This document shows, piece by piece, positions 3,683-45,955 of a stretch of DNA of 64,000 nt. A model generated the notes under the pieces. It did no database searches. It saw only the letters and a list, made by a program, of their open reading frames with translations, and had not been told where the DNA came from. The translations under genes were made by a program, and so were the position numbers. Within the stretch, counting starts at the first letter, position 1, and every line of letters starts with the position of its first letter. Origin of the DNA: Candidatus Saccharimonadales bacterium (lineage in GTDB: Bacteria > Patescibacteriota > Saccharimonadia > Saccharimonadales > EFPC-124); NCBI GenBank assembly GCA_035457485.1, contig DATIBO010000006.1, positions 242,659-306,658 on the forward strand. Reading direction: 5' to 3'.

Positions 3683-3721
3683 TACATTTGTCGTGCGACC
3701 AGTCTGCGATATACTAACCCC

Positions 3722-4291
3722 ATGATTGCACATGTTTCTGGGGAGATTGTAGAAAAAACAAATAATTCATTAATTATCGATGTAGGCGGAATTGGCTACG
3801 AGATTCAGGTTGCTAGTACAGATTTTGAGTCTGTTAAAAATGGTGATCGCGTCAAGTTCTATACGCACGACCATCTGCGCGAAAATGCGCATGAGCTGTT
3901 CGGATTTTCGCAACTGGCGGCTAAGCGACTTTTCGAAATGTTAATTTCAGTTTCGGGGGTTGGTCCAAAAATGGCGCTTGCCATTTTGAGTTTGGGCGAT
4001 ATCGAGGCTACGCGAAGTGCGATTGCTAACGCAGACAGCTCATTTGTCCAGCGCGCAAGTGGCGTGGGTAAGCGTTTGGCTGAGCGTATAACGGTTGATT
4101 TGCGCGATAAAGTTGGCGCACCCAGCATGGCTTCGGCTACGCTTACAGCTTCGGCTGGCGACGATGCCCTAGATGCGCTTTTAGCTTTAGGCTATGGCTT
4201 ACAGGAGTCAAGTGAGGCTTTGCAGGGAGTTGATTCTTCGCTAGACGTTCAGTCAAGGATTAAAATTGCACTGAAGGCTATTACTATCTGA
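3722..4291 (+). CDS. ruvA: Holliday junction branch migration complex subunit RuvA
   Basis: MIAHVSGEI...GGIGYEIQV OB-fold start, helix-hairpin-helix region VSGVGPKMALAIL, located between ruvC and ruvB. Confidence 0.9.
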   Translation: MIAHVSGEIVEKTNNSLIIDVGGIGYEIQVASTDFESVKNGDRVKFYTHDHLRENAHELFGFSQLAAKRLFEMLISVSGVGPKMALAILSLGDIEATRSAIANADSSFVQRASGVGKRLAERITVDLRDKVGAPSMASATLTASAGDDALDALLALGYGLQESSEALQGVDSSLDVQSRIKIALKAITI

Positions 4292-15087: not shown

Positions 15088-16743
15088 ATGGTTATTTCAC
15101 ATGCGCAGACTGACGAACCCGATACTCAGCAGGAACTTACTAGCTTTGTAAAAATATTTTCGCTACTTGGTTTGATTGTGCTGGTTTTGTTTGGTGCTCA
15201 AAGCATTGCGTTTGAAGGCGACTACAGGGTAGGGTATTTTGAATTTATAGCCGGACTTATAATGGGGCTAAACTTTATTACCTTAAAAATTACCAAAAAC
15301 GTTAATGTTGCGCGCAATGTATTGCTGAGTGTATTGCTAGCAATTTTAATGATGATGCTTACGACTGGTGGCCTTCAGGGTACTGGTCTTTATTGGTTTT
15401 ATATTTTTCCGGTAACGGCATTTTTTGTTTCGGGCAAACCACGTGGAATAATCTGGGTTGCAATTTTATATTTGTTTACTCTTGTAGTTTTGGGTTTGGA
15501 TGCGGCTAAAGTTTTAAGTATTCCGTTTAGCGCGATGCAAGTAGTGCAAATGCTGATAATTTTGTTTATTGTGTCGTTCGCTATTTATGTTTATCAGCAG
15601 GTTCGCGAAACGGCAACATCTGCTTCTAAACGCAATAAAGAGGATCTTCAGACTGAACGAGTAAGAGTCGATGCTGTTGTAGAGAACATAGCCGAGGGTG
15701 TAGTTTCTTTGGACGTTGATGGTCGTGTTAATTTTATGAATCGCGCCGCCGAAGATATGTTAGGTTGGTGGCAGCATGACTTGCAAGGTAAAAAGTTTGT
15801 GAACGTTGTCAAAACGCAAAACGAGAACGGCAAAGAAGTTAAGATGGACGAATGGCCACTTGGTGCAAACAAAAAAGATAAAAAATCTACAGTTTTAAAT
15901 TACATAAAAAAAGACGGAACAAAGTCATTACTTTTAGCAAACGGCTCGCCTATCATGCGTGAAGGCGAGTGTGTGGGCTACGTTGCTAGCTTGCGTGACG
16001 TAGCAGAGGAGCGTGCGATTGAACGCGCAAAAAGCGAGTTTATGACCGTGGCGTCGCACCAGTTAAGGACGCCGATCTCGGCGATATCGTGGTTTAGTGA
16101 AATGTTGCTTAATGGCGACGCTGGAAAACTAAACGATGAGCAAGAACAAGATGTTACGCAGATTCATCAGAGCACGCAGCGAATGGCGCGTTTGGTTGGG
16201 GATATGTTAATTGTAGCGAGACTGGAATTAAATAATCTTCCGGTTGTGCCGCAAGCAATTAACCTGCCGGTGATGTTGCGTAAAGTTGTGAGGGAGCAGC
16301 TGGAGGGTATACCAGAAGGTCGACTGCCGAAGATAAAAGAGCATTTTGATCAAAACATATCAGACATTTATGTTGATCCTGAGATTGTAAAAATAATCTT
16401 ACATAACCTAGTTGGAAATGCCGTAAAGTACACCCCCAAAGGAGGTGATGTGTCGATCGAAGTGATTGGCAGTGGTAATGAACCTGACAGCAAACTGACG
16501 ATTATAGTGAGCGATAGCGGTTACGGAATTCCAAAAGCGCAGCAAGCCAAAATTTTTACCCGATTCTTTAGGGCTGAAAACATTCGCGATAAAGATACCG
16601 ACGGAACTGGGCTAGGTCTTTTTATTGTAAAATCGCTGCTAGACTACATCGGAGGTGATATATCGTTCACATCCGAAGAAAACCAGGGTACGATTTTTGT
16701 AGTGCATTTGCCCTATACCAAAACTATGAGTGGTAAAAAATGA
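15088..16743 (+). CDS. Sensor histidine kinase (polytopic membrane sensor, PAS, HisKA, HATPase_c)
   Basis: About 6 N-terminal TM helices, PAS-like region, H-box VASHQLRTPISAI, G-boxes DSGYGIP and GTGLGL. Confidence 0.9.
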   Translation: MVISHAQTDEPDTQQELTSFVKIFSLLGLIVLVLFGAQSIAFEGDYRVGYFEFIAGLIMGLNFITLKITKNVNVARNVLLSVLLAILMMMLTTGGLQGTGLYWFYIFPVTAFFVSGKPRGIIWVAILYLFTLVVLGLDAAKVLSIPFSAMQVVQMLIILFIVSFAIYVYQQVRETATSASKRNKEDLQTERVRVDAVVENIAEGVVSLDVDGRVNFMNRAAEDMLGWWQHDLQGKKFVNVVKTQNENGKEVKMDEWPLGANKKDKKSTVLNYIKKDGTKSLLLANGSPIMREGECVGYVASLRDVAEERAIERAKSEFMTVASHQLRTPISAISWFSEMLLNGDAGKLNDEQEQDVTQIHQSTQRMARLVGDMLIVARLELNNLPVVPQAINLPVMLRKVVREQLEGIPEGRLPKIKEHFDQNISDIYVDPEIVKIILHNLVGNAVKYTPKGGDVSIEVIGSGNEPDSKLTIIVSDSGYGIPKAQQAKIFTRFFRAENIRDKDTDGTGLGLFIVKSLLDYIGGDISFTSEENQGTIFVVHLPYTKTMSGKK

Positions 16744-38804: not shown

Positions 38805-38882
38805 TGGGGCGAATGATGGGGGTTGAACCCACGGCCTCCGGAGCCACAATCCAGCGCTCTAACCAACTGAGCTACATCCGCC
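38805..38882 (-). tRNA. tRNA-His (anticodon GTG) with encoded G-1 and CCA
   Basis: Acceptor GCGGATG/CATTCGC, anticodon loop TTGTGGC, T-loop TTCAACC. An extra 5' G sits opposite discriminator C. Confidence 0.9.
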
Positions 38883-40552: not shown

Positions 40553-40629
40553 GCCCCGGTAGCTCAGCTGGACAGAGCAGGAGACTTCTAAGCTTCAGGT
40601 CGTTGGTTCGAGCCCAACCCGGGGTACCA
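40553..40629 (+). tRNA. tRNA-Arg (anticodon TCT), CCA encoded
   Basis: Acceptor GCCCCGG/CCGGGGT, anticodon loop CTTCTAA (one A-G mismatch closes the stem), T-arm GTTGG-TTCGAGC-CCAAC. Confidence 0.88.
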
Positions 40630-40649: not shown

Positions 40650-40919
40650 ATGAAAATTTTCCAGTTAGAAGAGATTATGAAACGCAAATGGGATTCCGAA
40701 AACGCCGAGCTTAATAAGAAATGCGTGAACGAAATTATAGCGCGGATCGACGAGATTGAAGACTCAGTTGGTGTAGTTGCGGCGCAAGATGTAATTGATA
40801 TTGTGCTAGAAAATTTAGCGCCAGAAATCTACAACAAGGGAGTGGCTGACGCTAAAAAGTCTATTCAAGAGAAGCTTTTAGATATTGAGGTTGACCTGGA
40901 TTCACTTAAGCAGAGTTAG
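40650..40919 (+). CDS. Small acidic hypothetical protein (DUF2164-like by recollection)
   Basis: 89-aa ORF; the segment VGVVAAQDVIDIVLENLAPEIYNKGVADA resembles that family. Not verified. Confidence 0.4.
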   Translation: MKIFQLEEIMKRKWDSENAELNKKCVNEIIARIDEIEDSVGVVAAQDVIDIVLENLAPEIYNKGVADAKKSIQEKLLDIEVDLDSLKQS

Positions 40920-40928
40920 TGAATCCCA

Positions 40929-42452
40929 CTAGATTTCTCGAATTATCTCAATCTTTGCGCCTAAGGATTTTAGTCGCTCGGCTAAGTCTTCGTAGCCGCG
41001 GTTGATCGAGTAAATGTTGCGTAAAACCGATACGCCCGGCGCGGCTAACATGCCGATTAACAATACCACTGCCGGACGCAAAGCCGGTGGGCAAATTACT
41101 TCGGCTGGTTTCCAGCGAGTCGGGCCGTTAACGTACGCTCGGTGAACGTCGGCTAAAGAGACGTCGGCGTTTAGTTTGCTTAGCTCTGTGTAGTATATGG
41201 CACGGTTTTCGTAGACCCAGTCGTGGATCAAAGTTTTACCCCTAGCAGTTGCTGCGATTGGTACAAAGAAAGGTAGGTTGTCTATGTTAATTCCTGGGAA
41301 TGGGTGGGCTTCGATTTTATCTTCGAGCGATACTAGTTCGCCACTTTCTTTGCAGAATATATCGATCAGATTAGTCTGGCCGTTTTTAGCTTTGTACGTT
41401 TCACCTAATTCGAATTTAAAACCCATTTTTTCGAGTTTAAGCAGCTCAAGATCCAAAAAGTCGATTGGCGCGCGCTTGATTGCGATTGGCGAATTTGTGG
41501 TTGCGGCGACGCTCAAAAAGGTCATCGCTTCGATTGGGTCTTCGCTTGGCCAATATTCAACGTCAAGGTTGATATTTTTTATACCATGAACACGCAGAGT
41601 ACTAGTTCCGATTCCTTCGATTTTAACACCTAGTTTTTCTAAGAAAAAACAAGTGTCCTGAACCATATAGTTGCTGGAGGCGCGGCGAATTTCGGTTACA
41701 CCAGGCGTGCGAGCTGCGGCCATTAAAGCGTTCTCGGTAGGAGTGTCGCCCTCTTCGTACATCACGACTTTACTTGGTTTTTTATGTTCAACTGTGCAGC
41801 GGTACCAGCCCTGTGTTGTTAGGACATTTAGGCCGAATTCTTCGAGTGCAAAAAGGTGAGGTTGAATTGTGCGTTCGCCCAGTTTACAGCCGCCGGCGTA
41901 GGGTAACATGAATTCGTCAACGAGATGCATAAGCGGACCCATAAACATCACAACGCTGCGAGTGCGGCGTCCGGCTTCTTCGTTCATTTTGTCGAGTTGC
42001 AAAGTTTTTGGTGGTTTTATCTCGAGGTCAAAGTCGTTTAACCAGCGCACTTTTACGCCAATACTAACCATGACTTCTAGTAGTCGATTGACTTCTTCGA
42101 TCCGTGGCATCCGCCGCAAAGTAGTAGTACCTTTGTTTAAGAGCGATGCGCAAAGTAAGGAAACAGCTGCATTTTTACTGGTGTTAATTGTGACCTCGCC
42201 GCTTAGTTTGTGGCCGCCTTCAACTCTAAAATTTAGGCTGCCAGTACTCAAGGAGACGATCTCGCTTTGCAGAGCATCCGAGATTCGGGCCAGCATTTCC
42301 ATACTTAGGTTTTGGCCACCGTTCTCGATGCGATTTACGGCACTTTGGCTAGTGCCTAGCGCTCGAGCTAGTTCGATCTGAGTCATGTTGCGATCAGAGC
42401 GAATTCTTTGAATTAGTTTACCAATTTTTTGCTTGTAATCTACTTCGTTCAT
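40929..42452 (-). CDS. murA: UDP-N-acetylglucosamine 1-carboxyvinyltransferase (MurA) with N-terminal XRE-type HTH domain
   Basis: N-terminal HTH IRSDRNMTQIELARALGTSQSAVNRIENG. The MurA body starts at FRVEGGHKLSGEVTINTSKNAA. Active-site loop YAGGCKLGERTIQPH. An alternative GTG start at 42638 would add 62 aa. Confidence 0.85.
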   Translation of the reverse strand: MNEVDYKQKIGKLIQRIRSDRNMTQIELARALGTSQSAVNRIENGGQNLSMEMLARISDALQSEIVSLSTGSLNFRVEGGHKLSGEVTINTSKNAAVSLLCASLLNKGTTTLRRMPRIEEVNRLLEVMVSIGVKVRWLNDFDLEIKPPKTLQLDKMNEEAGRRTRSVVMFMGPLMHLVDEFMLPYAGGCKLGERTIQPHLFALEEFGLNVLTTQGWYRCTVEHKKPSKVVMYEEGDTPTENALMAAARTPGVTEIRRASSNYMVQDTCFFLEKLGVKIEGIGTSTLRVHGIKNINLDVEYWPSEDPIEAMTFLSVAATTNSPIAIKRAPIDFLDLELLKLEKMGFKFELGETYKAKNGQTNLIDIFCKESGELVSLEDKIEAHPFPGINIDNLPFFVPIAATARGKTLIHDWVYENRAIYYTELSKLNADVSLADVHRAYVNGPTRWKPAEVICPPALRPAVVLLIGMLAAPGVSVLRNIYSINRGYEDLAERLKSLGAKIEIIREI

Positions 42453-42706
42453 ACCATCTATAATATCATATGTGATGTAAATACAAAAGCAAAATAAATT
42501 CAGACTTCTAGTTAGACGGGCGGACACTTTTAGCATCTGACCGTCTGCCTCGCTCAGCGACTTCAGATCGACGTAGCCCCGGACGCTAATGACTTCAGCG
42601 CTTGAGGTGTCGGCGACCGCTTTCTTCCTTACTTCCACGATTCCTCCTGTGGAGTGTGGTATGAGCTATATAAATATACAATAAAAATCATATTAGTCAA
42701 AAAATC

Positions 42707-42736
42707 TTGTAAAGGCTAGTATGGTGCAGCTACAAT
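42707..42736 (+). promoter_or_regulatory. Putative promoter of glyA
   Basis: TTGTAA (42707..42712), an 18-nt spacer, TACAAT (42731..42736). Confidence 0.35.
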
Positions 42737-42790
42737 AAAAACCATGATCTAAAAGTCGTTCAAAAAATCGCAAACTAAACGGGTAAAATT

Positions 42791-44068
42791 ATGAACGATA
42801 CTTTAATTGCAAAACTTATACAACAAGAGGAACAACGCCAGCGCGAGGGTTTGGAGCTTATCCCGAGCGAGAACTACGTTAGCCGCGAAGTGCTTAATGC
42901 GCTTGGAAGCGTTTTAACAAATAAATATTCCGAGGGCTATCCTGGCAAACGATATTACGGCGGCCAAGAATTTACCGATCAAATCGAGCAATTGGCGATC
43001 GATCGCGCTAAACAGCTTTTTGGTTGTGACCATGCCAACGTGCAGCCGCATTCTGGCGCGCCGGCAAACATTGCGGTTTACCAAGCCTGGTTACAGCCTG
43101 GCGATGCGGTAATGGCTATGGAGCTCAGTCACGGTGGCCACCTAACCCATGGCCATCCAATTACCAGTAGCGCCAAACTTTATAATTTTGTGCGCTACGG
43201 AATTAAAGATGTCGAAACTGGCGAAATTGACTATAACGCAATGCGAGATTTAGCAAAAAAGCATCGCCCAAAGATCTTGCTTGCGGGTTTTAGCGGCTAT
43301 CCACGCAGTCTGGATTACCAAAAATTTGCAGAAATTGGCCGCGAGGTTGGTGCAATGCTAATGGCAGATATGGCACATATTGCCGGGCTTATTGCTGGCA
43401 AAGCGTTACCTAATCCTTTTGACTTTGGTTTTAACGTTGTTACAACGACAACCCACAAAACCTTGCGTGGGCCGCGTGGAGGAATGATTTTAAGTAATGG
43501 AACGGTCGGCAATCCGCTTAAAGCGCCCGAACAAACTCTGCAAAATCTACCAACCTTAATTGATCGCGAGGTGTTTCCTGGATTCCAAGGCGGCCCGCAC
43601 ATGCATAGTATTGCTGCAAAAGCCGTAAGTTTTAACGAAGCTCTGCAGCCAGAGTTCCAAGTTTACGCCAAGCAGGTTCTAAAAAACGCTAGCCGCTTGG
43701 CTAACGAGCTTATGAAGCGCGGTTTTAAACTTGTGACAAATGGTACAGACAACCACATGATTTTGGTCGATGTGATGACCTCGTTTAAAATCGATGGTAA
43801 AGAAGCCGAGGAAGCGCTTGATAAAATTGGTTTGACGCTTAACAAAAATACAATTCCGCACGACACGCTACCGCCGTTTAAGCCAAGCGGAATTCGCCTT
43901 GGAACACCGGCAATGACGACGCGTGGACTAACTGAGCATCACATGGAGCAAGTTGCAGAGTGGATGAGATTGGCAATTAAACATCGAGGTGACGATAAAA
44001 AATTGGCCGAGCTTAAGAGCCAGACAAAAGAATTCGCCTTGCAGTTTAAGTTACCGAGTGACAATTAA
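42791..44068 (+). CDS. glyA: Serine hydroxymethyltransferase
   Basis: LELIPSENY, SHGGHLTHG, TTTTHKTLRGPRGG (PLP-binding lysine). Confidence 0.97.
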   Translation: MNDTLIAKLIQQEEQRQREGLELIPSENYVSREVLNALGSVLTNKYSEGYPGKRYYGGQEFTDQIEQLAIDRAKQLFGCDHANVQPHSGAPANIAVYQAWLQPGDAVMAMELSHGGHLTHGHPITSSAKLYNFVRYGIKDVETGEIDYNAMRDLAKKHRPKILLAGFSGYPRSLDYQKFAEIGREVGAMLMADMAHIAGLIAGKALPNPFDFGFNVVTTTTHKTLRGPRGGMILSNGTVGNPLKAPEQTLQNLPTLIDREVFPGFQGGPHMHSIAAKAVSFNEALQPEFQVYAKQVLKNASRLANELMKRGFKLVTNGTDNHMILVDVMTSFKIDGKEAEEALDKIGLTLNKNTIPHDTLPPFKPSGIRLGTPAMTTRGLTEHHMEQVAEWMRLAIKHRGDDKKLAELKSQTKEFALQFKLPSDN

Positions 44069-44093
44069 CGCAAAACCCTTTACAATTAAGGCG

Positions 44094-44591
44094 ATGAATG
44101 GTGTTGCCGACTGGAAAAGAGTTGAAAACAAAGCTCATGAGATATTAAACAAGTTTAATATCAAGGAGCCTTTAATTGACGTTTACTCTATCGCCGATGC
44201 CGAAGGTATAAATATTAATCCGGTTATTCCTGGAGAAGACCATGAATTTAGCGGCTTCTTAGACAGCAACGGTGAAAAACCGGTCATGTATGTTAATGCC
44301 GATGAATCCGTTACCCGACAAAACTGGACGATCGCCCACGAACTAGGCCACTATTATTTACAGCATAAGCCAGACGAATGGGGAATTGCTTGGCGAAACC
44401 AGTCCGATAAAAACGAATTTGAGCAAGAAGCCGACTACTTTGCTGCTTGTTTACTCGTGCCCGAACAAATGCTCCGAAGTTTAATGCGCAAGTTTAAACT
44501 TAAAGCTGAGGATAGTTTGCTTTTGTCTCAGATGTTTGGAGTTTCCGAGCGAGCTATGAAGAACCGACTTAACTTTTTACGAATTACTTAA
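44094..44591 (+). CDS. ImmA/IrrE-family zinc metallopeptidase (DUF955-like)
   Basis: HEXXH motif AHELGHYYLQH plus downstream EQEADYFAACLLVP. Start moved to the ATG at 44094. Confidence 0.75.
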   Translation: MNGVADWKRVENKAHEILNKFNIKEPLIDVYSIADAEGININPVIPGEDHEFSGFLDSNGEKPVMYVNADESVTRQNWTIAHELGHYYLQHKPDEWGIAWRNQSDKNEFEQEADYFAACLLVPEQMLRSLMRKFKLKAEDSLLLSQMFGVSERAMKNRLNFLRIT

Positions 44592-44939
44592 ATGGCCGAT
44601 AAACGACAACTTATTAAAGAAAGCCAGCCGATCCCCAGAGAGCAGTGGAGACTCGATAACTGGACGACTTTGAGCGACAAAGAACAGCGAGCCTTTTTGA
44701 TTTCACGCGAGCATGCCGAGTTAATTAAGCATAGAGGTTACTGGAGTTTTTCGCTAATTGGAATCGTAATCGCGATTAATATTGTTAGCTTGGCGGTGGT
44801 GATCTTGATTGGACTTGGAAGAATGCAATTTAACGGCGATCTTGCGGTGCCATCTATAATTACGGCAAACTTTGTTCAAACCTGGGCTTTGACAAAAATT
44901 GCCATGAAGTTCTATTTTAGTGACGACAAAAAATCCTAA
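44592..44939 (+). CDS. Small membrane protein (two TM helices), coupled to the ImmA-like gene
   Basis: ATG directly follows the TAA of the upstream gene; central hydrophobic hairpin. Confidence 0.55.
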   Translation: MADKRQLIKESQPIPREQWRLDNWTTLSDKEQRAFLISREHAELIKHRGYWSFSLIGIVIAINIVSLAVVILIGLGRMQFNGDLAVPSIITANFVQTWALTKIAMKFYFSDDKKS

Positions 44940-45955
44940 AGCAGTTCGGGTTCTTGCTCAAGTGTAATTCCAAATTTGTTATAGACTTTCTTAACAATTT
45001 CGTCTTGAAATGCCTTAAGATCCTTGTAACTTTTTGCTGATTCGTTGACGAAAACCAGCGCGTTTTTTTCGTAGGTTTTCATCCCGTGTGCCGAGTAGCC
45101 TTTGAGCCCGGCTTGATCTACAAGCCACCCCGCTGCAAACTTAACTTGCGAGTCAGGCATTGGCCAATGAGGTGCGTTAGGCGCGATTTTTAGCAAGTTT
45201 TCGGCGTCTTCTTCGGTTACAATTGGATTCTTAAAAAAACTTCCGGTGTTTGCAATTTTTTTAGGATCTGGCAAAATGGCCGAGCGGATTTCGGTGATCG
45301 CTTTACGAATCTGCGCAGGAGAATAGTCCGTAATCTTATTGTCGTCAAAATATTTTTGCAGGCGTGGGTAAAATGGCGGTTTTAGTTGGGACTTGCTCAA
45401 TTTTAATGTGATATCAATTATGATGTAGCGACGGCCGGCTAGCGGTTTAAAAATACTGTTGCGATAGCTAAACTGGCAATCTTTTTTACTCAAAACGACA
45501 AAATCATCGGTTTTCGTATCGTATGCCTGTAATTCGACAAAAGTTTGTGAAATCTCCTGTCCATAGGCACCAACATTTTGAACAGGAGTCGCACCTGCTC
45601 GACCTGGAATTGCGCTAAGGGCTTCGATGCCGCTTAAACCAAGTTCAACGCTTTTACCTACGACTTCGTCCCAGTTTTCGCCCGCGCCAATTTTTACACT
45701 TACGCCATCTGGTAAAACCTCGAATCCAGTAATTCGATTTAAAATTACCAAACCGGCAAAACCTTCGTCGCGCACAATCATGTTGCTGCCATCACCTAAA
45801 ACCAAAATTGGCAGGTTTGTTTGTTTAGCGAAATTGATAGCCTCCACAAGTTCATTTTTATTTTGCACGGAAACCACATTTTTAGCCGGCCCACCAAGCT
45901 GCATGGTTGTCAGAGTTGCCATTGGGATTTGATTTTGCATCTGCATGTAAACCAT
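44936..45955 (-). CDS. murB: UDP-N-acetylenolpyruvoylglucosamine reductase
   Basis: FAD-binding region LGGPAKN...ILVLGDGSNMIV; C-terminal GSFFKNP motif. Confidence 0.9.
   Translation of the reverse strand: MVYMQMQNQIPMATLTTMQLGGPAKNVVSVQNKNELVEAINFAKQTNLPILVLGDGSNMIVRDEGFAGLVILNRITGFEVLPDGVSVKIGAGENWDEVVGKSVELGLSGIEALSAIPGRAGATPVQNVGAYGQEISQTFVELQAYDTKTDDFVVLSKKDCQFSYRNSIFKPLAGRRYIIIDITLKLSKSQLKPPFYPRLQKYFDDNKITDYSPAQIRKAITEIRSAILPDPKKIANTGSFFKNPIVTEEDAENLLKIAPNAPHWPMPDSQVKFAAGWLVDQAGLKGYSAHGMKTYEKNALVFVNESAKSYKDLKAFQDEIVKKVYNKFGITLEQEPELL

Follow-up and report, generated by a model that had tools for sequence, protein, structure and literature searches.

In a 64,000-nucleotide stretch of the genome of a Candidatus Saccharimonadales bacterium (GenBank assembly GCA_035457485.1, contig DATIBO010000006.1, positions 242,659 to 306,658; called the window below, and its own numbering is used throughout), the minus strand carries at 40929..42452 a murA gene whose product begins with an XRE-type helix-turn-helix (HTH) domain. 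MurA, which is targeted by fosfomycin, catalyses the committed step of peptidoglycan synthesis. We consider it probable (about 72%) that this HTH-MurA would be a bifunctional protein, acting both as an enzyme and as an autorepressor of its own promoter. The N-terminal HTH is predicted to bind, presumably as a dimer, an 18-bp palindrome at 42462..42479, which has the -35 region on one side and the start codon on the other and overlaps an extended -10 element; the bound protein would exclude RNA polymerase, and in this way the amount of MurA would limit its own synthesis.

The open reading frame (ORF) extends from an ATG at 42452 to a TAG stop codon at 40929-40931 and encodes a product of 507 amino acids (aa); it was defined from the translation and from matches to Pfam and to the NCBIfam model NF006873, the start codon being placed with the help of an alignment of 120 homologs. 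A preliminary description of this DNA, made from the letters alone, had proposed a Cro/C1-type HTH of ~65 aa joined to a full MurA body. Both parts were recovered: the Pfam family HTH_3 is found at aa 14-65 (54 bits, cutoff 23; E = 1.7e-14) and EPSP_synthase (PF00275) at aa 77-494 (E = 2.8e-42). The HTH spans aa 1-65 and is followed by a short linker and then by the MurA body; HTH and linker (aa 1-72) are encoded at 42237..42452 and the body (aa 74-507) at 40932..42233, both on the minus strand. The HTH string that the same description had quoted, MTQIELARALGTSQSAVNRIENG, corresponds to aa 23-45, and its catalytic loop, YAGGCKLGERTIQPH, to aa 185-199, with the cysteine kept as Cys189. It was also right that this is the sole murA of the window, since no other ORF of at least 80 aa matches the MurA body or the HTH. 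Both folds are confirmed by an AlphaFold2 model of the monomer (mean predicted local distance difference test score, pLDDT, of 90; predicted template modelling score of 0.82), in which the HTH is made of helices at aa 3-20, 25-32, 36-43 and 51-61, with pLDDT values of 82-92. The top solved-structure matches of the HTH are C.BclI and PezA.

The recognition helix was delimited from alignments of fused homologs as the segment TSQSAVNRIENG (aa 34-45; 42318..42353, minus strand). Across 86 aligned sequences from Saccharibacteria and Actinobacteria, its residues T34, S35, Q36, S37, A38, N40, R41, E43 and G45 do not vary. Fused homologs with as little as 32% identity retain the core TSQSA[IV]xR[IM]E, on which the search was anchored, and a looser form of the motif matches 108 of 121 homologs from the Parcubacteria side. 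For the ortholog of Southlakia epibionticum, the HTH is classed as 'lambda repressor-like' by ECOD (PMC10633639, Table S2).

The rest of the protein looks like a functional enzyme. A phmmer comparison with the MurA sequences of the PDB gives E = 7e-56 for the body, and NF006873, a model for a MurA subfamily, is matched with 320.6 bits, above its cutoff of 297 (a further model, NF009470, is matched with 213 bits, under its cutoff of 552). Structural comparison with Foldseek yields TM-scores (target) of 0.91-0.94 to MurA structures and lower values to NikO and AroA. When aligned with the enzymes of Escherichia coli and Enterobacter cloacae, the catalytic loop (41856..41900, minus strand) shows Cys189 at the position of Cys115 and Arg194 at that of Arg120; its pLDDT is below 50, as expected of the flexible Cys115 loop. 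K22, N23, R91, C115, R120, D305, R331, R371 and R397 (E. coli numbering) are all kept, and Cys115 of the loop, Arg120, Lys22 and Arg397, which serve phosphoenolpyruvate, and Asp305, the base, are kept also in the Saccharibacterial, the Actinobacterial and most Parcubacterial homologs. The canonical MurA enzymes (E. coli, E. cloacae; PDB 1UAE, 1EJC) are ~28-31% identical to this protein and have the same two-lobed fold, and the same reaction, feeding MurB, is presumed; they lack the 72-aa N-terminal HTH and linker found here. No second ORF of the EPSP-synthase family was found in the window, nor within 6 kb in 80 related loci, these being the best 80 of at least 598 confirmed species-level matches (each species being represented by a single genome, and the query being the first 125 aa). 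The cultivated Saccharibacterium S. epibionticum has a closed genome, in which PF00275 is carried by the ortholog SEML1_0687 (1524 bp) and by no other protein (PMC10633639, Tables S1 and S2), and this ortholog was scored as essential in all three transposon-sequencing analyses (PMC10633639). The table of that study places HTH_3 at aa 14-65, and the gene is absent from its text (PMC10633639). HTH-MurA thus looks like the organism's working UDP-N-acetylglucosamine (UDP-GlcNAc) enolpyruvyl transferase, responsible for the first committed step of peptidoglycan synthesis.

The fusion is not peculiar to this genome. Both domains are present in all 120 of the nearest protein clusters (71-100% identity, 506-513 aa), and ~74 complete genes coding for 505-514 aa were recovered from the 80 species-level loci; the latter, as the best 80 of at least 598 genome matches, are nearly all from Saccharibacteria, oral Nanosynbacter and Nanogingivalaceae among them. 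Full-length fused relatives down to 32% identity turned up when 1.84 billion cluster representatives were searched. A profile search returned 1864 proteins at E ≤ 1e-20, of which the top 120 are all fused and bear the names Liptonbacteria, Colwellbacteria, Taylorbacteria, Paceibacterota, Parcubacteria or 'Patescibacteria group'. In the search on the Parcubacteria side, 113 of 121 sequences are catalytically intact and 8 belong to a degenerate clade. An ortholog of 509 aa, ~60% identical, occurs throughout Streptomyces, Kitasatospora, Streptacidiphilus, Actinacidiphila, Marinactinospora and Nonomuraea, which was unexpected. A single 90% cluster of this Actinobacterial form has 4337 members, and the genomes are genuine high-GC ones, with a GC content of 71-73% at the loci. 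As judged from these searches, MurA usually takes the fused form across Patescibacteria, and Streptomyces and its Actinobacterial relatives have the fusion as a conserved paralog. The statement of the preliminary description that this is not the textbook architecture therefore stands for E. coli and falls for the present lineage, where it is the usual form, annotated in thousands of database entries. The same description had thought it unlikely that a sequencing or assembly error had joined two separate genes. We regard such an artefact as next to impossible, because the same continuous frame of 505-514 aa recurs in hundreds of independent assemblies, including those of Streptomyces isolates and the closed Southlakia genome.

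The candidate operator was found by aligning the upstream regions of the fused genes at their start codons, and an anchor-based search was then used. Its consensus is TATATCA-N4-TGATATA (18 bp, arranged 7-4-7), and sites were scored over the 14 half-site positions. At least 12 of the 14 positions are matched 8-12 nt upstream of the start codon in 62 of 78 loci; when the search was anchored, a site with at least 11 matches stood at the fixed distance in 77 of 86 fused-gene loci, corresponding to 71 unique sequences. In the 788 kb of locus DNA there are 89 sites with at least 12 matches, 76 of them at a murA start, as against 3-13 sites in shuffled sequence. The two half-sites are similarly informative (~1.0-1.9 bits in the left one and 1.2-2.0 bits in the right one), and the palindrome accompanies the fused gene over 32-100% protein identity, over 32-73% GC and in differing gene neighbourhoods. 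In the window the site reads TACATCA-CATA-TGATATT on the minus strand (42462..42479) and is located 9 nt upstream of the ATG.

The palindrome appears to be embedded in the promoter of the gene. Its right half is overlapped by an extended -10-like element, TGATATTAT (42460..42468, minus strand), which ends 7 nt before the ATG; TG-n-TATAaT stands at the same place in the position-frequency matrix of the 71 unique sites, and a TTGAC-like -35 element abuts the left end of the palindrome. Because the -10 box ends only ~7 nt before the ATG, the HTH-murA mRNA is probably leaderless or nearly so, with a start site that we infer from the box; this fits with the lack of a Shine-Dalgarno sequence. A distal sigma-70-like promoter (TTGACT, 16-nt spacer, TATATT; 42673..42700, minus strand) was picked up by a consensus scan as a consensus match only, at 10 of 12 positions. 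It lies ~220 nt upstream of the murA start and, if used, would give a long leader or an N-terminally extended isoform. It is also all that we find in the AT-rich segment 42640..42790, which the preliminary description had put forward as the target for electrophoretic mobility shift assays; the likely site is rather at 42462..42479. The autoregulation which that description had offered as one possible meaning of the fusion has gained strong comparative support, as a palindrome sits on the gene's own putative promoter and is absent upstream of two unfused relatives.

The position of this promoter bears on the annotation of the start codon. A public entry (P0001, 100% identical, on an 889-kb contig) gives the protein 569 aa by starting at a GTG at 42638, 62 codons further upstream. 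This call is very probably over-extended and the true start is very probably the ATG at 42452, because the homologs begin with MNEVDYKQ and because the conserved promoter and operator would lie inside the additional 62 codons. The public annotation is explained by an AGGAGG followed by the GTG at 42638, in frame with murA, within the segment 42490-42660.

We also looked at whether the palindrome follows the HTH or the surrounding genes. In Saccharibacteria it is present with glyA as divergent neighbour. In Parcubacterial loci L088-L090, which have mreB divergent or IF-2/RbfA upstream, it matches 13-14 of the 14 positions exactly 8 nt from the ATG. (mreB was seen in place of glyA as the divergent neighbour at 2855-3862 of L088 and 2619-3683 of L089, among Liptonbacteria, Paceibacterota and Taylorbacteria.) In Streptomyces and Kitasatospora, the fused gene is downstream of an ABC-transporter gene and is preceded by a perfect TATCTCAT-GG-ATGAGATA amid 72% GC, the sequence of the Streptomyces site being TATCTCATGGATGAGATA. 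Locus L087 has a co-directional upstream gene and a palindrome with 13 of 14 matches. In locus L084 the fused gene is the third of an operon, and 13/14 sites are located before the first and the second gene; these sites (3685-3702 and 4241-4258) precede genes for a NUDIX protein and a nucleotidyltransferase, and the fused gene of this locus (P0151) is catalytically degenerate. The palindrome was not found upstream of the two unfused relatives, L091 and L092. Taken across these contexts, the sequence comparison indicates that the palindrome is a companion of the HTH and not of the gene neighbourhood.

Indications for additional targets are few. The only other 12/14 matches in the window are at 16645-16662 and 45410-45427, both in coding sequence and the second inside murB; a wider regulon in the window is unsupported, because this number fits the chance expectation. 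Directly upstream of murB, a 13/14 operator-like site (TATATCAAGGGTGGTATA) is seen in only two of the related loci (L035, 1400-1417; L040, 1441-1458). These two sites hint that murB may be a second target in some lineages.

A natural experiment splitting regulation from catalysis is offered by fused copies that appear catalytically dead and lie beside an unfused murA. In loci L081, L085 and L086, which belong to low-GC lineages and cluster with Patescibacteria sequences, the fused gene and an unfused murA are arranged head-to-head, and murB or a Mur ligase gene comes after the unfused one; the arrays of dead fused copy and unfused murA, murB, ddl and Mur ligase genes cover 2624-5503 of L081, 95-5003 of L085 and 3558-6530 of L086. 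In L085 and L086 the gene next after the fused one is for a Mur ligase; in L081 a Ddl-domain gene comes in between. C115, R120 and R91 are gone from these fused copies, and K22 and R397 variably so, whereas the unfused copies keep them all. They nevertheless keep the HTH, the TSQSA..RIE helix and the palindrome, which sits between both murA genes; with a spacer of 60 bp in L081, it would overlie both divergent promoters. The retention of HTH and site argues that selection maintains the DNA-binding function independently of catalysis. D305 and R331 are retained in the dead copies and the phosphoenolpyruvate (PEP)-binding residues are lost, which hints that sensing of the UDP-sugar may have been retained.

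These copies also raise the question of whether HTH-MurA in the present genome could serve chiefly as a transcription factor whose sensor derives from MurA, UDP-GlcNAc-enolpyruvate being made by another enzyme. The inspected part of this genome is the 64-kb window, and the head-to-head loci provide the precedent. We nonetheless hold this to be very unlikely, as the nine catalytic and ligand residues listed above are intact here, and likewise in 113 of the 121 Parcubacterial homologs, as no second EPSP-synthase-family ORF turned up in the window or within 6 kb in the 80 related loci, and as the Southlakia ortholog is both the only PF00275 protein of a complete genome and essential.

Two other explanations concern the palindrome and the HTH themselves. 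The palindrome could be mere promoter architecture, for example two back-to-back extended -10 boxes, or it could be the site of another regulator, the HTH having some other target or none. Its right half with the flank does read TGnTATAAT, its left half mirrored on the other strand reads TGATATAWW, and the upstream gene is divergent in 70 of 88 loci. However, back-to-back -10 boxes are argued against by the left half, which is equally well kept where the upstream gene is co-directional (6.29 of 7 positions, n = 7) and where it is divergent (6.24 of 7, n = 70). Moreover, an AT-rich perfect palindrome stands out in the 72% GC surroundings of Streptomyces and Kitasatospora, the HTH-bearing gene is the only constant neighbour of the palindrome while unfused relatives do without the site, and in L084 two genes of the fused gene's operon are preceded by the site. 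We therefore consider this explanation unlikely. Alternatively, the HTH could be a protein-binding module that tethers MurA to the cell-wall synthesis machinery. RodZ, a membrane protein whose XRE-type HTH binds MreB, is a precedent for such a use within cell-wall biology; mreB is the divergent neighbour in Parcubacterial loci, and the modelled HTH has four helices and not the usual five. This alternative leaves unexplained why a symmetric palindrome should keep a constant distance to the start codon, cross phyla and be gone where the HTH is missing. The recognition helix carries TSQSxxxRIExG, the signature usual for reading DNA, mreB does not adjoin the fused gene in Saccharibacteria or Streptomyces, and neither the sequence nor the model has a transmembrane segment, unlike RodZ, which has no enzyme domain and no known operator, whereas HTH-MurA has both a MurA body and a conserved palindrome as candidate operator. 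A tethering role thus seems improbable to us.

The proposal that HTH-MurA is an enzyme and autorepressor accounts for the conservation of the palindrome, and we infer from the comparative evidence that the protein binds DNA, dimerises and represses rather than activates; several observations weigh against it. MurA is generally monomeric, and the modelled HTH, with four helices only, has no obvious dimerisation element; the AlphaFold2 model, being that of a monomer, is uninformative on dimerisation and on contacts between HTH and MurA. The linker (aa 62-72) is modelled with low confidence, so that the model is silent on inter-domain coupling. The window's own site matches the consensus at 12 of 14 positions only, and ~9 of the 86 loci have no clear site at the expected place. 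Since the palindrome overlaps a good extended -10 element, its conservation must come partly from promoter function. On the side of the enzyme, the score with the equivalog model TIGR01072 is 301.6 bits, under the cutoff of 392.7, and Asp369 of the canonical Asp369-Leu370 is replaced by Pro/Ala in the motif PPALRP; this replacement is common to the whole subfamily, including its unfused members, and owing to it, kinetics or ligand responses may differ from those of the model MurAs.

By analogy, HTH-MurA most probably works like the enzyme-repressors of the BirA type. In BirA, PutA and NadR, as here, a DNA-binding domain and an enzyme are combined in one chain, and a palindromic operator is found on a promoter of the same pathway. 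BirA has a winged helix and HTH-MurA an XRE domain; the two proteins are not homologous; BirA targets a separate biosynthetic operon, whereas the predicted target of HTH-MurA is its own promoter; and ligand-dependent DNA binding, proven for BirA, is hypothesised for HTH-MurA. We would add the speculative suggestion that the open or closed state of the ligand-bound MurA body (UDP-GlcNAc, PEP or, as feedback ligand, UDP-N-acetylmuramic acid, UDP-MurNAc) alters the affinity for the operator, as biotinyl-AMP does for BirA. Canonical MurA forms a dormant complex with UDP-MurNAc and PEP, and structures of such complexes, for example 3SWD and 3SU9, are among the Foldseek matches. The best sequence matches to the HTH itself are autoregulatory XRE/Cro-C1 proteins, namely C.BclI, PezA, HipB and 434 Cro/CI. 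These likewise use a short inverted repeat that overlaps their own promoter and has half-site centres about one helical turn apart, but they are small proteins, stand-alone or partnered with a toxin or a restriction-modification system, whereas here the HTH is fused to a housekeeping enzyme. The XRE-shikimate kinase fusion NF006015/PRK08154 ('anaerobic benzoate catabolism transcriptional regulator') also has an N-terminal XRE HTH on an enzyme fold; it matches the HTH part weakly and its enzyme domain differs, with no kinship beyond the HTH.

The Actinobacterial HTH-MurA (for example at 5992-7521 of L060 and 5992-7521 of L074; proteins P0121 and P0287-P0406), which has the perfect palindrome upstream, was placed with neighbour-joining trees (distance-based, no model testing). 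In the tree of MurA bodies, the Actinobacterial clade is nested in the Saccharibacterial radiation in 100 of 100 bootstraps, and in a full-length tree of 103 taxa with Parcubacteria as outgroup in 60 of 60, its sister being a soil metagenome-assembled genome (L013). The clade is at least 85% identical internally, and the Saccharibacterial radiation goes down to 52% identity. This suggests, as a lead, that gene and operator moved from a Saccharibacterium to Actinobacteria, the host phylum of cultivated Saccharibacteria; if so, it would be a rare case of gene transfer from an epibiont to the lineage of its hosts. The Streptomyces gene known as murA2 (vnz_28735, a BldM-WhiI target), the one additional murA that has been studied, was considered as the HTH form and rejected: its published cloning primer encodes MPTPTAS... 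and not MADDYL..., and murA2 is a different paralog from HTH-MurA.

Around the window gene, glyA (serine hydroxymethyltransferase; Pfam SHMT, E = 3e-163) is located at 42791..44068 on the plus strand. It is divergent from HTH-murA here, in 69 of the 80 related loci and in Southlakia (SEML1_0687 and SEML1_0688). murB, whose product uses the product of MurA, is at 44936..45955 on the minus strand (Pfam MurB_C and FAD_binding_4), 2.5 kb from HTH-murA, and it is within 6 kb in 52 of the 80 loci. Between glyA and murB there are a gene for an ImmA/IrrE-type Peptidase_M78 (43989-44591) and an ORF of 115 aa that matches no Pfam family (44592-44939). Proteases of the ImmA/IrrE type usually cleave XRE-type repressors, and the Peptidase_M78 was therefore considered as a possible conserved partner, one that would cut the XRE domain; this was rejected as none of the 80 related loci has the gene, which is probably a strain-specific insertion. 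The spacer between murA and glyA measures 338 nt; in the related loci the glyA start is within ~100 nt of the murA start. It includes the segment 42490-42660 mentioned above, 171 nt with 53% GC in an intergenic region that otherwise has 24-28%. No Rfam family was matched in the whole window at gathering thresholds, nor in 42300-42900 at E ≤ 1, and the GC-rich segment (42490-42665) folds no better than its shuffles (z = -0.2) and has no homolog in any fetched locus. A structured RNA in the spacer was accordingly rejected, given the lack of an Rfam match and the ordinary fold stability. Immediately downstream of murA are a DUF2164 ORF (40650-40919) and a tRNA-Arg(TCT) gene (40553-40629), and further downstream a tRNA-His(GTG) gene (38805-38881); in Southlakia too, tRNA genes (Lys, Arg, Gly and His) are found just downstream of the murA ortholog.

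A full-text literature search found no paper describing the HTH-MurA fusion or its operator. The architecture is already visible in public annotation; what is new is the candidate operator, the finding of how widely the fusion occurs in Patescibacteria, the apparently dead regulatory paralogs and the suggested link to Actinobacteria. Automated names for the family vary between 'MurA' and 'helix-turn-helix domain-containing protein', and the public annotation of the present gene should take the ATG at 42452 as its start. The proposal lends itself to testing: Southlakia and Nanosynbacter are genetically tractable, the Streptomyces ortholog has a perfect palindrome, and the site is only 18 bp long.

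Control of MurA is known mainly from Firmicutes, through ReoM/ClpCP, and from mycobacteria, through CwlM. In these systems too, MurA is where the supply of peptidoglycan precursors is regulated, through its amount or its activity, but they work by proteolysis or through an activator protein, whereas HTH-MurA would act on transcription via the enzyme itself. A still broader reading, which is possible and which we offer tentatively as the more doubtful one, would see here a precursor homeostat common to Patescibacteria, in which an HTH affinity set by ligands tunes murA (and in some lineages murB, Mur ligases and the unfused murA), together with a transfer of the module from a soil Saccharibacterial epibiont to Actinobacterial hosts, where it would persist as an extra paralog in Streptomyces. 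If the autoregulation proposed here is true, transcriptional control built into the enzyme would be a third and simpler way of controlling MurA, beside proteolysis and the activator protein, and it would apply to a very large and mostly uncultured bacterial diversity with few regulators and tiny genomes.

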